DNA of 64,000 bases from an uncultured Lachnospiraceae bacterium (GTDB lineage: Bacteria > Bacillota > Clostridia > Lachnospirales > Lachnospiraceae): assembly GCA_910579615.1 (NCBI GenBank), contig CAJTUA010000005.1, positions 132,135 to 196,134 of the forward strand, written 5' to 3'. The notes beneath the pieces are model-generated. The model was not told the DNA's origin and did no database searches. It saw only the letters and a list, made by a program, of their open reading frames with translations. The position numbers and the translations under genes were made by a program. This document shows, one piece after another, positions 31,587-56,840 of this stretch (positions within the stretch are counted from its first letter, which is position 1; each line of letters opens with the position of its first letter).

Positions 31587-33419
31587 TTATTCAACAACCT
31601 TTAACTGCATCTCATCCATGTAGTAAGAAGTCAGATATCCGGTCGCGGACTCCTCGCCCTGCGTGCCGACTAAGAGCATACCATTGTCGATACCATCTGC
31701 AATCTCAAGGGTAGCGACAAGCTGTACCCACTCGCCTTTGTTTACAACCTGCTCCAGGGCAATCTCGTAAGTCGTATTGCCGGCATCGTCTGTGCCGATG
31801 GCTTTCTGGCGGTTCCAGATTGTGAAGTTGATGGAATCCGGGGCAGCGCTGAAAGCGCCATCTTCATACATTACCCATACCGAGAACTCTACCGTATGAC
31901 CCTTTAATGTTTCCGCGGAAAGACCGTTTACGGCAGAAATGCGAAGCCCGCAACCGGAGTCATCATGTTCGCGACCTTTTACCAGGACACATTCATTGCC
32001 ATTGTGGGCAATGCCGACAGCATTTTCATTGGTAGCGTAGTTATAAGAATTGCTCCCGTCAAGGTAATTGCCGAGCTCGCTCTCGAAGTTGTTGTAGTAT
32101 ACAATGGAACCTGGCTCAACCGGGGCATCTGCAACCTCGTTTGCACCGCCGCCCGTCGTGGCAGGTGCTTCGCCCCCTTAGTTGTTCCCCTCATTTGCGC
32201 CAGCAACAGCTTCGCCTGCAAAGGAAATCACAACCTCATCCACCGTAAAGCTTGCGGTCTCGGAAGGAGACTCAAAATACAGAACCGGCTTGGAGGTAGC
32301 AGCGCCAACCTCGATTGTGCCAGAAACCTGTGTCCATTCGCCCGGAGTTAAGTCGCCGGAACTTGCAATGCGGTTGTAGGCAGTGGAAGAACCATCCGAG
32401 AAATCTTCCTGGAGCGTAACGTTTACTTCGGTCGCCTCTTCAACCTTTACCCAGTAGGAAATGCTGATCGTCCTGCCTGCCAGATTATAGGAGGAAAGGT
32501 CAACCTCCGCGCCGTTCCAGTTAGAAGTGCGTCCGGTTACCTGCATTGCGAAATCATCGTCGTGCCCGCCTGAAACAATGGCAGGGGTACCGTCGCCACG
32601 GCTGCCAAAGAAAAGATTGTCATCGTTAAAGGTGAGGGAAATGCTCTCAACATTCGATAAATCCGGAGTGTTGACAACGATATCCTGATAATGCGCCTCG
32701 GCTACGGCGCCCTCTACGATGGTAGCTACAACATCATCAATATAAAAATCATAAGTATCGGTTGCTTCCCAGTAAATCAACGGGGAAGTTGCATCCGGGT
32801 AAATCGGGATATCTCCTTCAATCAATACCCATTCGCCCGAAGGTACCGCTTCGTTATTCGCTCTTTCCGGCCAGTCTGAACTGCCGTCCGGCTTGTTTAC
32901 CTGCAAAGTACACGAGATGGTAATCGGCTCGCCGACTTCATGCTTTGCCCAGTAAGAAATATGGATGACCTTTCCGATACATTCATCCGGGATGCTTAAG
33001 GATGTACCATGCCAGCCATCGGTACGTCCGGTTACCATAAAGCATTCGTTGCTGTCATGTCCGTCGGTCTTAATCCATCTTGCATTGCCGCTTCCTCTGT
33101 CCTGGAAATATAAGGACTGGGATTTTTGGGATGCATCATAGGAGAAAAGAAGATTTGGGTCAGCTTCCGGTGTCGGTGTCGGAGCCTCGCTTGGTGCCTC
33201 CGTCGGGGCATTGGTCGGAGCCTCGCTTGGTGCCTCCGTCGGGGCATCGGTCGGAACCTCGGTTGGAACATCTGTCGGTTGCGTGGCTGTGGTTGGTGTC
33301 GGGGTAGAATCTGCATTTGTCTCTTTGTCCTTGCCACATGCGGCAAGAGAACCAACAGCAAGGGTAGAAACAAGAGCCATCCCCATCAATCTTTTTAATT
33401 TCATAAAAAACCTCCTCAA
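31587..33419 (-). pseudogene. Lipoprotein with three CBM_4_9-like carbohydrate-binding modules, split by one in-frame TAA (32178-32180)
   Basis: Lipobox LAAC, Pro/Thr linker and two CBM modules in the 413-aa ORF. The same frame stays open past the TAA through a third module to 31587; only one stop interrupts 610 codons. Confidence 0.8.
33181..33252. repeat. Tandem 36-bp coding repeat (x2, plus degenerate flanking copies) in the Pro/Thr linker
   Basis: GGAGCCTCGCTTGGTGCCTCCGTCGGGGCATTGGTC is repeated with one mismatch. It encodes APTEAPSEAPTN-type units on the minus strand. Confidence 0.9.
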
Positions 33420-33760
33420 GTTTTTCTGTCATGATGCATTTTCCGGTAACGGCTCTGCAAATGGCAGAACTGTTACTTTTTGAATGTAACATCACTGTCA
33501 TAAATATAGCATGGATTATGCATTATGTCAATTATATGAACGGCCAAGAGAGCAAATTTTGTGCAAAATACACAAAAAACAGGGTGTTCTTTTTATGTAT
33601 CGGCTACTCAAATATTGTGATTTGTAAAATTAAGGAAAAAATTTCACGGATGCAGGGCGGTGGGAAGGTGGAAGAGCTTTCATTTAAGTACAAATTCTTC
33701 CCGGAAAGCTTTATAAAAGATTGTATTGAAGACGAACAAAGTTACATTGCAAAAAAATAC

Positions 33761-48559: not shown

Positions 48560-50425
48560 ATGGGAAAGACACAGGAGCAGAACAGGCAGACGGGAATATT
48601 TGGACAGTTAATTCGCAACATCCGGGAATTGCAGGGAATCAGCCCGGAGGAACTTGCAAGGGGAATCTGCAGCACAAAAGCGTTGGAAAAATATGAAACG
48701 GGGGAGCGGGAACCAGACATATTGACAGCGGAAGCATTATTCGGGCGGCTAAAGAAATCAATGGAAAAATTTGAAGCGATGTTAAGCTGCACGGAACATA
48801 AGCAGCTAAAACAGCGCATGGGAATCCAGCTATTGCTGCGGGAGGGAAAGCTCGCGGAAGCGGAAAAGAAAATTGAAGATTATGCAAAAATAAACCTTGC
48901 ATTGCATTATCAGTATGCATGTTTTCTGAGGGCAGAATTCCTGCGGAAAACGCACGCGTCGTTAAAAGAGCAGATTTGCAATGTGGTGGATGGGATATAC
49001 CAGACATCAGAGGCCCGAAAGGAAAATACCATCCGGAAGGTGACGGCGGAAGAAATGGCAGGGAATGCCCTGAAACCGGAAATGCTGCTAACAGGACGTT
49101 ATTCAAAAATGGAACTGTACTTATTGGAGCGCTATGCGATTTTGTTGGAGGAAAATGGGGAACCGGAGCGGGCAGTCCTCTGGTATCAGGCAATCGTGGA
49201 TTATTTAGAGGATGAGAGATATGATCGTTCCGAACAGTACAGCATTTATCCGATTATGGCTTATAAATTGGCAGGATATTACGAAACACAATGTCTGTAT
49301 ACCATAGCGATGGAGTGGATTGGGCGCGGCTGTGAGATGTTGAGGAAGAGAAAGAGCCAGCTTCCCCTGTTTTGTAAGCTGATGGAGCTGAAATTTAAGA
49401 TAGAGGATTGTCCGGGGGCAGGGAGAAATCCTGATTTCGCGGAGAGGGAGGCATACCGGAAGATGTGTGACAGCGTGGCAGGCTGTACAGAGGATTGGAA
49501 GGAAAACTGGTATCCGATGTACCGTGAGGTACACCGAGTATGTTTTAATGACATTATCCGGGAGCGCAGGATAGCAAAGGGGATGTCAAGAATGGAACTG
49601 GCATACGGAATCTGTGATGTGCGGACACTGGAACGTATGGAAGCCTGCCAGAATACGCCGAGGGCATGGATAAGGGAAAGGCTTTTGGAAAAGCTAGGGC
49701 TGCCATTGGAAAAATATAATGGCGGTATCGTGACAAAGCAGTATGCGGATTATCGGAGATTTTCACAAATGCGGGAATCTTGCCGGAAAGGTGAATATCA
49801 GGAAGCAAAATCCATATATGAAGAATTAAAAAAGGGAATGGATATGAAAAATATTACGAACGAACAGTGGGCGGAATATTGGGATATCCGGATTGAAGGA
49901 GGATTGGGGCATATTCTGCCAAAAGTGAAAGAGGAACGGCTCTGGGCACTTTTAAGAAAGACAGTACCAATCAAAAGGGATTGTCCGCAGTTTGAGTGTC
50001 AGTTGATGGAGCATGAGAGGAATATTTGGAACCAGATTGCGGAAGGTGGAGCACCAGAAGATGGAAAAATAAGAAAATTTCAGTTAAAGCAGATATGGAT
50101 TTATTATCAGGAGAGGGAAAAGAGGTTGATAGAACCACAGTATTTGGTTCAATTACTTACACTTTTCGGAGACCTCACCAGACGGGAAGGGAAGGCTACC
50201 TTGGCGTTACGATATTTACATATAGCAGAGAAAAAGATGGTACTGATGGATGAATGGCATTTTTGGGAATACATTCTATGTCATAAACAGATAGCAATAA
50301 TAGAAACGGGCACAGAGAAAAATGATTTTCAGTGTGCCAGGCAAGCATATGCAGTGAGTTGTCTCTATGCAAAAAATCCGATGATGTGCGATTATCTTAT
50401 CGAGTGTTTTGAAGAAAACATATGA
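48560..50425 (+). CDS. Tandemly duplicated XRE-HTH + helical-repeat (RNPP/Rgg-like) regulator, 621 aa
   Basis: Two HTH domains (residues ~13-65 and ~328-380), each followed by ~240 aa of TPR-like helical sequence. AGGAAGGA RBS. Confidence 0.75.
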   Translation: MGKTQEQNRQTGIFGQLIRNIRELQGISPEELARGICSTKALEKYETGEREPDILTAEALFGRLKKSMEKFEAMLSCTEHKQLKQRMGIQLLLREGKLAEAEKKIEDYAKINLALHYQYACFLRAEFLRKTHASLKEQICNVVDGIYQTSEARKENTIRKVTAEEMAGNALKPEMLLTGRYSKMELYLLERYAILLEENGEPERAVLWYQAIVDYLEDERYDRSEQYSIYPIMAYKLAGYYETQCLYTIAMEWIGRGCEMLRKRKSQLPLFCKLMELKFKIEDCPGAGRNPDFAEREAYRKMCDSVAGCTEDWKENWYPMYREVHRVCFNDIIRERRIAKGMSRMELAYGICDVRTLERMEACQNTPRAWIRERLLEKLGLPLEKYNGGIVTKQYADYRRFSQMRESCRKGEYQEAKSIYEELKKGMDMKNITNEQWAEYWDIRIEGGLGHILPKVKEERLWALLRKTVPIKRDCPQFECQLMEHERNIWNQIAEGGAPEDGKIRKFQLKQIWIYYQEREKRLIEPQYLVQLLTLFGDLTRREGKATLALRYLHIAEKKMVLMDEWHFWEYILCHKQIAIIETGTEKNDFQCARQAYAVSCLYAKNPMMCDYLIECFEENI

Positions 50426-50443
50426 GTGAGAAAAATAAAAAAC

Positions 50444-50632
50444 TTAATCCTTTTCGATAGGTACCGGTTCGGGAAGTGGTGGAGGCGGAGGAAGTGTTCC
50501 CGGACTTTGAAAAATGATAGAAATACTTGGAGAAAGCAGTTCATCGCTTGGCGGTAGTGGTTTCGCTGCGGAAGAGACGAACAGTGCTGTGACAAGCATA
50601 AGGGTGTAAAATTGCTGAAATAGTTTCTTCAT
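50444..50632 (-). CDS. 62-aa secreted Pro-rich pro-peptide (candidate signalling peptide precursor)
   Basis: ATG at 50632 lies 7 nt after AAAGGAG. Sequence MKKLFQQFYTLMLVTALFVSSAA | KPLPPSDELLSPSISIIFQSPGTLPPPPPLPEPVPIEKD. The upstream 82 codons of the track ORF are not protein-like. Confidence 0.55.
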   Translation of the reverse strand: MKKLFQQFYTLMLVTALFVSSAAKPLPPSDELLSPSISIIFQSPGTLPPPPPLPEPVPIEKD

Positions 50633-50715
50633 AGGTACTCCTTTCTTCTCTTTGCGAGAAAATAATATAATGGATGGGTAACAAATACAGTATATCATAA
50701 AGTTCCCCTGTCCGA

Positions 50716-50755
50716 CCGACAAAAGTGGGGGAAAAATTTCCCCCACTTTTGTCGG
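50716..50755. promoter_or_regulatory. Perfect 16-bp palindrome (candidate operator) centred between divergent promoters
   Basis: CCGACAAAAGTGGGGG-AAAAATTT-CCCCCACTTTTGTCGG. Each arm supplies a TTGTCG -35-like hexamer: 17 nt from TATGAT on the minus strand (peptide gene) and 21 nt from the extended -10 TGCTATAAT (50773-50781) on the plus strand. Confidence 0.5.
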
Positions 50756-50889
50756 AATAATTGGAAAAAGGCTGCTATAATGTGAGTGAACATGTTCAGA
50801 ACACGTAGGTAAATGCCTTACAGGCTTCTTTGGACGCTTGGACGCAGAGAGCTTGTAAGGCAAACTTTCAAAAAACATGGAGGTATGTT

Positions 50890-52107
50890 ATGAAATATTT
50901 GAAGGAAAAGATGTGTATGTTGCTGGTGCTCGCCCTGCTTGTAACCGGTTTGGGCAGCGTTGAGCCGATGGTAGCAAAAGCAGAGGAAACGTGGAAACAA
51001 CAATCGGAGGATGATGTACCAGTGCTAGTCTCAGATTGTTTTGAAGATGTTTTGGGATATGCTGAATACTATTTTTACTATGATAAACCAGACATGCCGC
51101 TTGCTGTCTCAGATAGCGATTTTTCACAGTTGCTAATTTCCAAGTCGGAGATTGTTCTGGAGACAAATACCTGCATTGATTATGTTGATGTCGTAGGTGT
51201 TACAGCCAATGGACAGTATATTAATCTATCGAATGTGGTTGATGTGGTTGCTGAGGATGAAGATATCGCTACATATTGGGATGGCAGGATTTACGGTGTT
51301 GGGGAAGGAACGACAGAAATCCGTCTTCGTTATGGTTCGTTGGAAGTAGGGGTTTCGGTAACAGTGAAATCAAATTTTGATTTTGAGGCAATGGTTCAAG
51401 CGATGATTTCTGGGGAAGAAGGGATTTCCTCATATTCTGTTCCAGGACCAGAAATGCAGGACGTGATGACCCGGGCATTTGAAATGGATACGGTGGAATG
51501 GGTGACAAAACAGGAATTCATACTGAATGATGGAACGGAGGTTGCTCTGGGTACGACTTTGCAGGGATTGCCGTATACACAGGAAAACCGCTGTACAGTC
51601 AAAGAATTTGAAACGTTTCACAAAAACTGGGAAAGCAATAAGTTCTATTCGTTTGAACGTCAGGAAAATGGTCATTATTGGTGTAAATATGGAATTGATT
51701 GCAGTGGATTTATTTGTGCAGCATGGAATCTTCCAGTGAGTGGAAAGTATACATATGGCACATCTGATTTTTGGCGAGAAATAAAAGATGAGAATTCCAC
51801 TAAATTTGAGAAGGTTGGGGATTATAAAATTGCGGCAAATGCTACAACAACCAGCGGGGGAGTGCAGCAGCATGAAATATATGCATCTTATCAATACCTA
51901 AATGTTGGTGATGCAGTTGTTCAGAGGAGGAGTGGTGGTGGGCATGCCCGTCTGGTTATGACAAATAATCGTAATACGGAAATGATATCGTTTTATGAAG
52001 CGTATGGAAATTTTCCTACGATAATAACCGTTAGTTATGACCGACTGACTTATGATTATTATTGCCCATTCACAATTAAGACAGATTTTTATAATCAGTA
52101 TAATTAA
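50890..52107 (+). CDS. Secreted Big_2 + NlpC/P60-like (papain-fold) cell-wall hydrolase candidate, 405 aa
   Basis: Signal peptide MKYLKEKMCMLLVLALLVTGLGSVEPMVAKA, an Ig-like block (GVGEGTTEIRLRYGSLEVGVSVTV) and catalytic-type motifs GIDCSGFICAAW and GGGHARLV. GGAGG RBS before the ATG at 50890. Confidence 0.75.
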   Translation: MKYLKEKMCMLLVLALLVTGLGSVEPMVAKAEETWKQQSEDDVPVLVSDCFEDVLGYAEYYFYYDKPDMPLAVSDSDFSQLLISKSEIVLETNTCIDYVDVVGVTANGQYINLSNVVDVVAEDEDIATYWDGRIYGVGEGTTEIRLRYGSLEVGVSVTVKSNFDFEAMVQAMISGEEGISSYSVPGPEMQDVMTRAFEMDTVEWVTKQEFILNDGTEVALGTTLQGLPYTQENRCTVKEFETFHKNWESNKFYSFERQENGHYWCKYGIDCSGFICAAWNLPVSGKYTYGTSDFWREIKDENSTKFEKVGDYKIAANATTTSGGVQQHEIYASYQYLNVGDAVVQRRSGGGHARLVMTNNRNTEMISFYEAYGNFPTIITVSYDRLTYDYYCPFTIKTDFYNQYN

Positions 52108-54022: not shown

Positions 54023-54706
54023 ATGCAAACCAAAAAAATCATTCTCCAATGTACAAATCTCTGCAAAAGCTACGAAGACGGAGAGAATCAGCGGGAGATA
54101 TTAAAAAATGTAAATCTGGAAATTTCCGCAGGAAGCATCTGCCAAATCTGCGGAAAAAGCGGGAGCGGAAAGACAACGCTGTTAAATCTCTTAGCGGGCT
54201 TGGACTGTGCCACGTTAGGAACTATCCGTTTTTCCGGGAAAACTTATGGAACGATGTCCGAAGAAGAACACGCGAAGCTGCGCGGCGAATCTTTTGGATT
54301 TGTTTTCCAGTCGTTTCATCTGCTAAGAAATGTTTCTGTCGAGGAAAATATCAAAGCTCCGGCATATGTAAACGGCAGAAAAGTTGATTCTGAGTATATG
54401 GGTTATCTTGTGGAAATGCTCGGATTAAAAGATTTACGAAAGCAGATGGTCTGCAAGCTGTCCGGCGGGGAACAACAAAGAACTGCGATTGCGCGGGCAA
54501 TGCTTTTAAAGCCACAGATTGTTTTTGCGGATGAGCCGACGGGAAACCTGGATTCTGCCAATACAGAATTGATTGTGGAATTGTTTCGGAAAATTAACAA
54601 GGAACAGGGAACGACATTTGTTGTCGTGACACACGAGGAAGATTTGTTAAAACCATGTGCAAAACAGATATGGATAAAGGATGGCGAGGTGCAGCTTGAA
54701 GAATAA
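54023..54706 (+). CDS. ABC transporter ATP-binding protein (MacB/LolD/FtsE-like)
   Basis: Walker A GKSGSGKTTLLN, signature LSGGEQQR and Walker B VFADEPTGNLD. Confidence 0.9.
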   Translation: MQTKKIILQCTNLCKSYEDGENQREILKNVNLEISAGSICQICGKSGSGKTTLLNLLAGLDCATLGTIRFSGKTYGTMSEEEHAKLRGESFGFVFQSFHLLRNVSVEENIKAPAYVNGRKVDSEYMGYLVEMLGLKDLRKQMVCKLSGGEQQRTAIARAMLLKPQIVFADEPTGNLDSANTELIVELFRKINKEQGTTFVVVTHEEDLLKPCAKQIWIKDGEVQLEE

Positions 54707-56840
54707 CAGAAAAAATTATAAAAAATTAGCTGAGTTTTTATTTTCGGACAGTAAAAAACTCGTACTGCTTGCAGGGGGAGTTTTGTTGGCAGCATTGAGT
54801 TTCTCACTTTTTTTCATTTCGGTAAACAGCACCATCGTTGCGTCAAGGAGGCAGACGGCGGTAGAGACACACGGAAGGTTTTTGGCGGTATTTACAGATA
54901 TTGATAAAGAAATAGCCGATGAAATTATGGAAAAAGAGCCGATGTTTGACTATCAGGTGTTTCAGGTGCAGGACGAGATGTATTATGGCAGCAGCCGTTT
55001 TTTTTCTGGTTGGGTAACTGAGGAAACAGGAAAAAACATGGGGATATTTTTAAAGGAGGGAGCCTGGCCGGAGAGGGAAAATGAGATTTTGCTGGAAAAA
55101 TATTTAGCATACCGTTTGGGGATTTCCGAATTTCCGCAAAATGCTATTTTTATGGTGGATGGCGAAGAAAGGGAATACCTTGTGTGCGGTACCATCCGGA
55201 ATTATTCTGGCAATCTTGTAACGTCGAATCGGGATTTGAATCTAAGAAAAGATTATCCTTCTGCAATCACGCCGGGTTACAGGGAAAATGCAGAGGTTTC
55301 CCTCCTTATTTTACAGAAACGGCTGAATTTGGGAACATCAACAGAAGATATGTACGATGTCATGGATTTGCGCAATGAATATGGGATTAGCCCATACTTT
55401 TCTGCTTTAAATAAATATATGGATGAAACCTATCAAAATACCATAGATTTCGAAAGGTTTGGTCTGGTTTATATGATGGCAGTGCTTCTTGTGCTTCTGC
55501 TTGTTGAGGCTGTGATTTTTCGGGCGGTTGTCCTGAAAAATAAGTGTTCGGAACGCAGTCTTAGGGAGCTGGGGCTGACGAAGAAGGAGGTCATGCTGGC
55601 GTATGGCCTGCGGTTTGGAAAGGTTTTTTTGGAAACAATAGGATTCCAGGTAGTTATAGGTGTTCTTTGGGCAAAAATAGGGGGATATCTTACGGGGTAT
55701 GGAAAACTTTTGGAAAAGCATGTCTGGTACACGTTGCTGAAAGAATTTGCAGTCCTGGTTCTGCTTTTACTGATTCTTGCCGTTATGGCATGGGACCGTA
55801 AAACGTGGGAAAAAACGGCTGACGTAAAACAGAAAAAAAATTCCCGGTATTTATTTCGCAAATTGAATGAAATGCAGGAAGCTTACGGTCTTTCAGTATT
55901 TGATATCGGCGGAGGGGAGCGGTGGGAAGAATGGGAGGATATATTGGAGGGGGAGGAAGCAAGACGCTATGAGCCGCTGCCGTGGGATACTTTCGAAGTG
56001 CTGATTTTGCCGGAACAACAATACCAGCTGTTTTTAAATGAGAATGGTATCCCATGGGAGGACTCGCCTTCCGCGATGCCGGAATGTATTATGGTATTGC
56101 CCATGTTTGCTGAGGACGAGGAAATCGTTGGCGTAAGTGATGGTTCTGCCATCACCGTCGGCAGGGTTTTTTTGCAGGATGGAAAACTGTTATTTGAGAA
56201 GGAAGAATATTGCGCATGGAAGGTATTGAAAAATGCAAAAGGCATGGAAGAATCTTTTTCGGCAAGATGTCTGTGCGGGTTGGTATTTTCCGCAGCGCAG
56301 GCAGAGAAAAGTAAGCTGATTTCCGGATACAGCCATCTTTATTTCCGGCTGCGGGGGGATGCGACAAAGCAACAGCAGGAAGAAATCGACAATGCGATTG
56401 CCATGCTTGCCGCGTCCGCGCAGGGGGGAGGTTCGTTTTCGACGATTGAGGAACAAAAGGACGATGCACTTTTTGAAAGTTATGCAGCGTTTATGGGCAC
56501 TACCATGTTTGTTTTTGCATTGTTTGCTATGGGTGCATTTGTTTTTATGCATTACTATGTCAGCTGGGAGAAAAACAAATATGTATATGGGGTGTTCCGC
56601 AGTATGGGGATGCCGTACCGCACGCTCTGCGGCAAGCTTTTTGTGCAGTATGTAACGGGAATTGTTTTCGCGTGGTTTTTTGCGTGCTATATTGTGGAGA
56701 ATGTTTTCGGATATCGATTTACGGCGGGGCAGGTTGCCTTGTGCACGGGATTTTTGCTGCTTTTCATTGAAAGCTGTTATGCGGTGCTGTATGGCGTGTA
56801 TAAAAAGACTGCCATATGTAAAATGCTGCAGGAAGAATGA
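54681..56840 (+). CDS. FtsX/MacB-type ABC permease with two large soluble domains, 719 aa
   Basis: By eye: TM1, ~220-aa domain, three TMs, a ~230-aa acidic domain, then three C-terminal TMs. The start is either ATG 54681 or TTG 54696 (after GAGGTG). Confidence 0.8.
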   Translation: MARCSLKNNRKNYKKLAEFLFSDSKKLVLLAGGVLLAALSFSLFFISVNSTIVASRRQTAVETHGRFLAVFTDIDKEIADEIMEKEPMFDYQVFQVQDEMYYGSSRFFSGWVTEETGKNMGIFLKEGAWPERENEILLEKYLAYRLGISEFPQNAIFMVDGEEREYLVCGTIRNYSGNLVTSNRDLNLRKDYPSAITPGYRENAEVSLLILQKRLNLGTSTEDMYDVMDLRNEYGISPYFSALNKYMDETYQNTIDFERFGLVYMMAVLLVLLLVEAVIFRAVVLKNKCSERSLRELGLTKKEVMLAYGLRFGKVFLETIGFQVVIGVLWAKIGGYLTGYGKLLEKHVWYTLLKEFAVLVLLLLILAVMAWDRKTWEKTADVKQKKNSRYLFRKLNEMQEAYGLSVFDIGGGERWEEWEDILEGEEARRYEPLPWDTFEVLILPEQQYQLFLNENGIPWEDSPSAMPECIMVLPMFAEDEEIVGVSDGSAITVGRVFLQDGKLLFEKEEYCAWKVLKNAKGMEESFSARCLCGLVFSAAQAEKSKLISGYSHLYFRLRGDATKQQQEEIDNAIAMLAASAQGGGSFSTIEEQKDDALFESYAAFMGTTMFVFALFAMGAFVFMHYYVSWEKNKYVYGVFRSMGMPYRTLCGKLFVQYVTGIVFAWFFACYIVENVFGYRFTAGQVALCTGFLLLFIESCYAVLYGVYKKTAICKMLQEE

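Follow-up and report, generated by a model that had tools for sequence, protein, structure and literature searches.

The 64,000-nt stretch of DNA analysed here, referred to as the window, contains a short open reading frame (ORF) which lies tail to tail with the gene of a large regulator and is oriented towards it, and the question arises whether this ORF encodes a peptide that is sensed by the adjacent regulator. Taken together, our analysis makes it likely that the product of the 62-codon ORF is the pre-pro-peptide in a signalling pair of the RRNPP type (PlcR/PapR-like), whose receptor has an unusual tandem build. The locus comprises the following elements:

48560-50425, plus strand: gene of a 621-aa regulator with two HTH and helical-repeat modules in one chain, the presumed receptor (Pfam, alignment of the two halves, predicted fold)
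50444-50632, minus strand: gene of the propeptide (62 codons and a TAA stop), retained at five orthologous loci
50638-50644, minus strand: Shine-Dalgarno sequence AAAGGAG
50890-52107, plus strand: gene of a 405-aa secreted protein, divergent from the peptide gene and, by its position, the presumed target (cargo)

The peptide frame runs on the minus strand from the ATG at 50632-50630 to the TAA at 50446-50444 and gives the 62-aa product MKKLFQQFYTLMLVTALFVSSAAKPLPPSDELLSPSISIIFQSPGTLPPPPPLPEPVPIEKD, which lacks cysteine and has 15 prolines within its last 39 residues. The peptide gene and the regulator gene converge without overlap, their stop codons being 18 nt apart. A first, sequence-only reading of this DNA had described the same ORF and the same stop-to-stop distance, and both its coordinates and its translation agree with ours; however, the gap of 7 nt that it gave between AAAGGAG and the ATG is in fact a spacer of 5 nt (AAAGGAG at 50644-50638, then TACCT). 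The Shine-Dalgarno sequence GAAAGGAG is present in four of the five orthologs, and the locus L070 has GAAAGGAA. The 62-codon frame forms the 3' portion of a 144-aa ORF (50444-50878), and the start at 50632, which had been preferred over the longer ORF from the beginning, is kept across the orthologs. The 82 codons upstream of it are open in the window and are closed by in-frame stops in the orthologous loci L066, L068 and L070; the 144-aa reading was therefore rejected, and the longer frame is, as judged from the orthologs, an accident of the window's genome with 50632 as the conserved start. Gene callers annotated the peptide ORF in some assemblies only, its exact sequence occurs once, without a name, in a collection of 15 billion proteins, and a Pfam search with the 62-aa peptide returned no family.

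A protein search with the regulator identified five close relatives with 55 to 76% identity and one near-identical sequence. The orthologous loci were taken from contigs of four relatives, while the fifth comes from a genome of the same genus and is identical to one of those; the regulators of the five loci show 59 to 76% identity. At the orthologous loci, an ORF of 61 to 63 codons is found on the opposite strand, positioned between 17 nt of overlap with and 17 nt past the regulator stop, and all of the encoded peptides begin with MK(K/N). The five distinct peptides can be aligned end to end with gaps of whole codons, and pairwise Nei-Gojobori comparisons yielded dN/dS values of 0.22 to 0.69 at pS values of 0.44 to 0.69, at which synonymous sites are near saturation. 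This conservation is not a by-product of the regulator coding sequence because the window ORF is separated from it by the 18-nt gap. The alignments thus indicate that the 62-codon frame is a real, conserved gene. A profile built from the five orthologous peptides retrieved only four true relatives from 1.84 billion representatives, and the Pro-rich peptide type appears to be restricted to close kin. A search of the window's own genome with the peptide produced no paralog detectable by sequence, and paralogous peptides were located by position instead.

Within the peptide, two parts can be distinguished:

50564-50632, minus strand: residues 1-23, signal-peptide-like as read from the sequence, with MKK, the hydrophobic core FYTLMLVTALFV and the small-residue site SSAA before K24
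50447-50503, minus strand: residues 44-62, PGTLPPPPPLPEPVPIEKD, the best-conserved stretch in the alignment of orthologous peptides and the candidate source of the mature signal

The hydrophobic core of the window peptide comprises 12 residues and its uncharged segment 20 residues, and the n/h/c layout is common to all orthologs and to the paralogous peptides. The N-terminus was called Sec-type by eye on the basis of this layout; alternatively, the segment could be a membrane anchor. The last 39 residues are Pro-rich and acidic rather than hydrophobic. Residues P44, P49, P51, P52, P54, P56, P58 and I59 are invariant in the ortholog alignment, the best-conserved block of the peptide is the C-terminal P-x-P-x-P-I-[E/D], and the sequence PEPVPIEKD is identical in the window and in L066, whose regulator is 76% identical. 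The PapR-like layout proposed earlier, with the active part at the C-terminus, is borne out insofar as the C-terminus is indeed the best-conserved part among the orthologs.

The regulator contains an XRE-type HTH (HTH_3, PF01381) at residues 18-70 (E 3.2e-9) and a second, degenerate HTH at about residues 329-378, and its first half can be aligned to its second over the HTH and the initial helices (E 7e-9). Neither a Pfam TPR model nor, in a PDB sequence search with the regulator profile, any structure matched the protein, and NCBIfam gave nothing above cut-off for the regulator and three single-module relatives. An AlphaFold2 model calculated from 14 sequences is all-helical with a mean pLDDT of 88.7 and a pTM of 0.89. 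When the whole model was compared with the PDB using Foldseek, the PlcR-PapR7-DNA complex (3U3W) came out on top, followed by PlcR-PapR (2QFC), Rgg2, ComR and PrgX; the list also includes long eukaryotic TPR scaffolds such as APC/C subunits, which align to the double-length model. For the N-terminal half, which was folded alone with a pLDDT of 88.7, the first 41 Foldseek entries are all RRNPP receptors, namely PlcR, Rgg2/3, NrpR, ComR, PrgX, a putative Listeria regulator and Rap, with PlcR leading the list (E 2e-6, TM 0.54). TM-scores between the regulator and PlcR are moderate at about 0.5, and the predicted fold suggests that the regulator is a PlcR/Rgg-type receptor.

The next question is whether peptide and regulator belong together. 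The genome (4.15 Mb in 44 contigs) encodes three full-length paralogs of the regulator with 31 to 33% identity, and all three have at their 3' end a convergent small ORF that combines a strong Shine-Dalgarno sequence and an ATG start with a Lys-rich N-terminus and a hydrophobic core. The encoded peptides consist of 58, 60 and 56 aa; the first of the three ORFs overlaps the regulator stop by 4 nt, and the other two lie 3 nt and 158 nt from it. These peptides resemble the window peptide in position and layout, but not in detectable sequence. Using a fixed heuristic score of our own, which considers the Shine-Dalgarno sequence, the start codon, a basic N-terminus and a hydrophobic window, we rated all small ORFs that are possible downstream of homologous regulators in other Lachnospiraceae. 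A convincing candidate on the convergent strand was found for 29 of 41 double-length regulators, which stem from related genomes and are not independent samples, and about 12 of the 41 have no convincing peptide ORF. The conservation of small signal-like ORFs beside regulator homologs, which had been put forward as a check on the original proposal, was thus observed in 3/3 paralogs, 5/5 orthologs and 29/41 double-length homologs. As a control, the same strand behind the regulator homologs was scored, and no candidate of comparable quality was obtained. In a second control, the region behind each of the genome's 1898 ORFs of 300 aa or more was scored in the same way, and 19 of these ORFs passed: three are the regulator and its close paralogs, nine show similarity to the regulator in one half or in both (E 2e-14 to 7e-4), one encodes a protein with an HTH-like N-terminus without significant similarity, and six are unrelated. 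The genome-wide background for a convergent signal-like ORF is hence about 0.3% (6 unrelated out of 1898), compared to 12 such ORFs behind regulator homologs. These controls argue that the pairing of peptide and regulator is not due to chance; the synteny, which extends over paralogs and genera, looks obligate. Furthermore, a maximum-likelihood tree of the 41 regulators revealed that the peptide type tracks the regulator clade: the peptides of the window clade carry the Pro-rich pattern ...FQxPG...PPPPLPEPxPI[E/D], those of a second clade ...WGDGxCQTLDEDDPP... and those of a third ...ECSVCGDEDD....

Several observations were made on the side at these loci. At least nine further regulators of the HTH and helical-repeat type in the genome have a convergent small signal-like ORF, five of them being single-module (306-339 aa) and four double-module proteins (632-745 aa); they are located at C1:229924-232161, C2:60235-61155, C2:7664-8623, C7:167289-168224, C17:34414-36414, C20:24154-26094, C20:65468-67366, C29:11571-12590 and C29:29384-30313. 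The genome seems to contain at least a dozen pairs of this kind. At G000:C15 (about 33331-33513, plus strand), a similarly built orphan peptide gene (MKQKFQKIKCC...EICSDESREVTLPADPTPPERY) has no regulator; an ABC exporter gene converges on it instead, and divergent genes for secreted proteins lie upstream. In L058 (G210:C76), the regulator homolog contains two in-frame TAG codons and the peptide ORF is absent, and in L052 (G204:C39) the peptide slot has, as its best-scoring ORF, an 84-aa frame without a signal-like N-terminus, which by eye resembles the C-terminus of a transposase; both loci look like decayed cassettes.

On its other side, the peptide gene lies back to back with the gene of the 405-aa cargo protein, for which no Pfam match was found and a PDB sequence search gave chance-level results only. 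A secreted protein or a lipoprotein is encoded in the divergent position at every orthologous locus (L066, L068, L069 and L070 as well), and these proteins are mutually non-homologous. Because the cargo genes differ in this way between orthologous loci, the regulator, the peptide and the promoter block appear to behave as a conserved module placed before exchangeable cargo. The module lies just downstream of metH in the window and in at least two orthologous loci. The spacer between the peptide gene and the cargo gene contains the following elements:

50689-50697, minus strand: extended -10-like element TGATATACT, the predicted peptide promoter as suggested by conservation, overlapping TATGAT
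50716-50755, no strand: perfect inverted repeat of 40 bp, CCGACAAAAGTGGGGGAAA-tt-TTTCCCCCACTTTTGTCGG
50773-50781, plus strand: extended -10 element TGCTATAAT, the predicted divergent cargo promoter, reverse complement of the block attatagca, which is largely kept in five orthologs

The 40-bp palindrome occurs once in the genome, and its outer 12-mers are invariant in the five orthologs; a TGnTATACT-like element follows about 20 nt past its right arm in the orthologs and in the clade-A paralogs, and the remainder of the intergenic spacer has diverged among the orthologs. This anatomy is the one expected for an activator site that stands in for the -35 element of two divergent promoters, and the palindrome is probably a binding site of the regulator. 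Inverted repeats with a CAAAA core were found 50 to 125 nt before most, but not all, of the paralogous peptide genes examined; besides the window type CCGACAAAAGTG, the types CCACGGCAAAAA, CAAGCAAAAATGGG and CCATGACAAAAC occur. Among relatives, the palindrome arms are separated by an A/T-rich spacer of anywhere between 2 and 33 nt; such variation is odd for a fixed dimeric operator. As a second or alternative role, the palindrome could possibly act as a bidirectional A-tract/hairpin/U-tract terminator against read-through from the regulator gene, since its inner stem together with CACTTTTGTC is flagged on both strands. That it is a plain terminator is less likely, however, as relatives keep the spacing between the right arm and the -10 element, the outer 12-mers are invariant in sequence and the loops reach up to 33 nt in relatives. 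The inner arm sequences co-vary among L002, L015, L055, L060, L063 and further relatives, and the outer CCACGGCAAAAA arms are fixed. In addition, a 10-bp palindrome, GAACATGTTC, is located at 50788-50797, just downstream of the cargo promoter TGCTATAAT, and is kept in five orthologous loci (with one substitution in L069) despite their differing cargo genes; it could serve as an additional operator or belong to the 5' leader of the cargo gene. Rfam did not recognize any family over positions 50300-51000, where only meaningless hairpin matches to miRNA models were obtained.

The product of the peptide gene might also serve a purpose other than signalling. It could be a small exported or membrane-anchored protein that is co-regulated with its secreted neighbours and not sensed by the regulator, for instance a Pro-rich peptide associated with the surface or wall, or a cargo partner anchored in the membrane. 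The hydrophobic segment could serve as the anchor, the adjacent genes all encode secreted proteins or lipoproteins, and the orphan at G000:C15 lies beside secreted-protein genes in the absence of a regulator. However, the cargo is non-homologous between loci at which peptide and regulator remain together, the peptide type follows the regulator clade and not the cargo, and the partner is predicted to have the fold of a peptide pheromone receptor; we therefore regard this explanation as unlikely, albeit as the one that deserves most attention besides signalling. It is improbable that the ORF encodes the precursor of a ribosomal antimicrobial or modified peptide (bacteriocin/RiPP), the production of which is merely controlled by the regulator. 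A small exported peptide with an ABC transporter further downstream (54023-56840) would suit a bacteriocin, as would the conserved Cys motifs in the peptides of the two sister clades (ECSVCGDEDD and CQTLDEDDPP), but the window peptide is free of cysteine, Pfam recognised neither a modification enzyme nor an immunity gene next to it, its leader is signal-peptide-like and not of the double-glycine type, and the peptide-regulator pair recurs with differing neighbours. Finally, although the genes are convergent with no terminator between them and a strong hairpin is present upstream, it is highly improbable that the frame is untranslated and conserved for an RNA or DNA function of the regulator 3' region, such as an antisense RNA or a terminator, given the strong Shine-Dalgarno sequence at the correct distance, the concentration of substitutions at synonymous sites, five diverged orthologs that are free of stops and have all indels in frame, the lack of an Rfam family match, and paralogous loci which are unrelated in sequence and nevertheless retain the layout at the protein level.

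Among known systems, the signalling pair favoured here is closest to PlcR-PapR of the Bacillus cereus group (RRNPP; PDB 3U3W, 2QFC). PlcR is the best structural match of the regulator; both systems have a small propeptide with an N-terminal signal sequence, which is predicted from the layout in the window peptide, and a conserved C-terminal part, the peptide gene directly adjoins the receptor gene in both, and a palindromic site is found before an auto-induced peptide gene and a secreted-protein target, although the regulation is a prediction in our case. In contrast to PlcR, which has 285 aa, the receptor of the window consists of 621 aa and carries two HTH and repeat modules in one chain, and its profile shows no sequence-level similarity to structures in the PDB. 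The peptide, with 62 aa, is Pro-rich, and its gene is convergent with the receptor gene, whereas papR lies downstream of plcR in the same direction. Moreover, a match to the PlcR box TATGNAN4TNCATA was absent from the intergenic region (50633-50889) even when one mismatch was allowed.

The convergent arrangement has a precedent in the Group III Rgg/SHP systems, where the peptide gene likewise points at the 3' end of its receptor gene and the two abut or overlap (PMC13361665); convergent pairs had already been mentioned for some Rgg/SHP loci in the sequence-only reading. The window pair and its relatives display the same layout. Rgg2 and Rgg3 are among the top fold matches of the regulator, and genomes with Group III Rgg/SHP systems (e.g. 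rgg1299 of S. thermophilus) likewise contain many paralogous systems. SHPs, however, are shorter, have a hydrophobic mature C-terminal end, are exported via PptAB and are processed by Eep, whereas a signal-like region of classical n/h/c layout is followed by a hydrophilic, Pro- and acid-rich tail in the peptide described here.

Candidates of RRNPP_detector (PMC10075063) are defined by a propeptide of 10 to 100 aa, either with a Sec signal sequence called by SignalP or SHP-like, at a distance of -60 to 400 bp from a receptor which combines an HTH with a peptide-binding repeat fold, has a length of 250 to 500 aa and matches a TPR HMM. The window pair shares with them the size of the propeptide (62 aa; 61 to 63 aa in the orthologs), the adjacency (18 nt; -17 to +25 nt in most relatives) and the N-terminal HTH; the modelled fold of its receptor resembles the peptide-binding repeat fold of PlcR, Rgg2/3, ComR, PrgX and Rap. 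The receptor itself would be skipped by RRNPP_detector, as it is a duplication of two modules of about 310 aa and thereby exceeds the length range, and lacks a TPR HMM match. Such cassettes have been missed so far because their receptors fail both the length rule and the TPR-HMM rule. In the text and supplements of PMC10075063 that were searched, no Lachnospiraceae entry was found, and a literature search for RRNPP or PlcR-type systems in Lachnospiraceae retrieved no paper.

How might the system work? Conservation indicates that the peptide is translated from the ATG at 50632. As its layout suggests, the N-terminal 23 or so residues would direct Sec export and be cut off near SSAA|K, and the 39-residue Pro-rich pro-part would then be trimmed extracellularly to a short peptide around PEPVPIE of the C-terminal block. 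Re-import could be accomplished by an oligopeptide permease; the genome encodes two OppA-type binding proteins. Inside the cell, the peptide is expected from fold and synteny to bind the helical-repeat groove or grooves of the adjacent 621-aa regulator. The anatomy of the promoters suggests that the regulator would act on the 40-bp palindrome, located at the -35 place of the two divergent extended -10 promoters, and would switch on both the peptide gene, thereby leading to auto-induction, and the neighbouring secreted-protein gene. Since the peptide and regulator genes are arranged tail to tail and no terminator was found between them, we speculate that transcripts of the peptide gene probably extend into the regulator gene as antisense RNA.

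What is understood of quorum sensing by peptides and cytoplasmic receptors of the RRNPP type comes almost exclusively from bacilli, streptococci, enterococci and their phages. The Lachnospiraceae, for which our literature search retrieved no such paper, are a dominant family of the mammalian gut. The chances are about even that gut Lachnospiraceae possess a large, undescribed branch of such quorum sensing, characterized by a single-chain double-module receptor, a tail-to-tail gene for a Sec-type propeptide and a CAAAA-core palindrome that drives the peptide gene together with freely swappable secreted cargo; the window's genome would then contain a dozen or more private channels with single- or double-module receptors, and the PEPVPIE-type peptide would be one dialect among them. 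The peptide half of the pair is a conserved gene that gene callers missed in part of the assemblies, its receptor is excluded by standard detection rules on account of its length, and the genome seems to harbour roughly a dozen pairs of this kind. If the signalling role proves true, searches for RRNPP systems should abandon the 500-aa limit for receptors, the control of variable secreted proteins would find an explanation, and communication between cells of gut commensals could be studied with a concrete set of candidates for the peptides, the receptors and their DNA sites.
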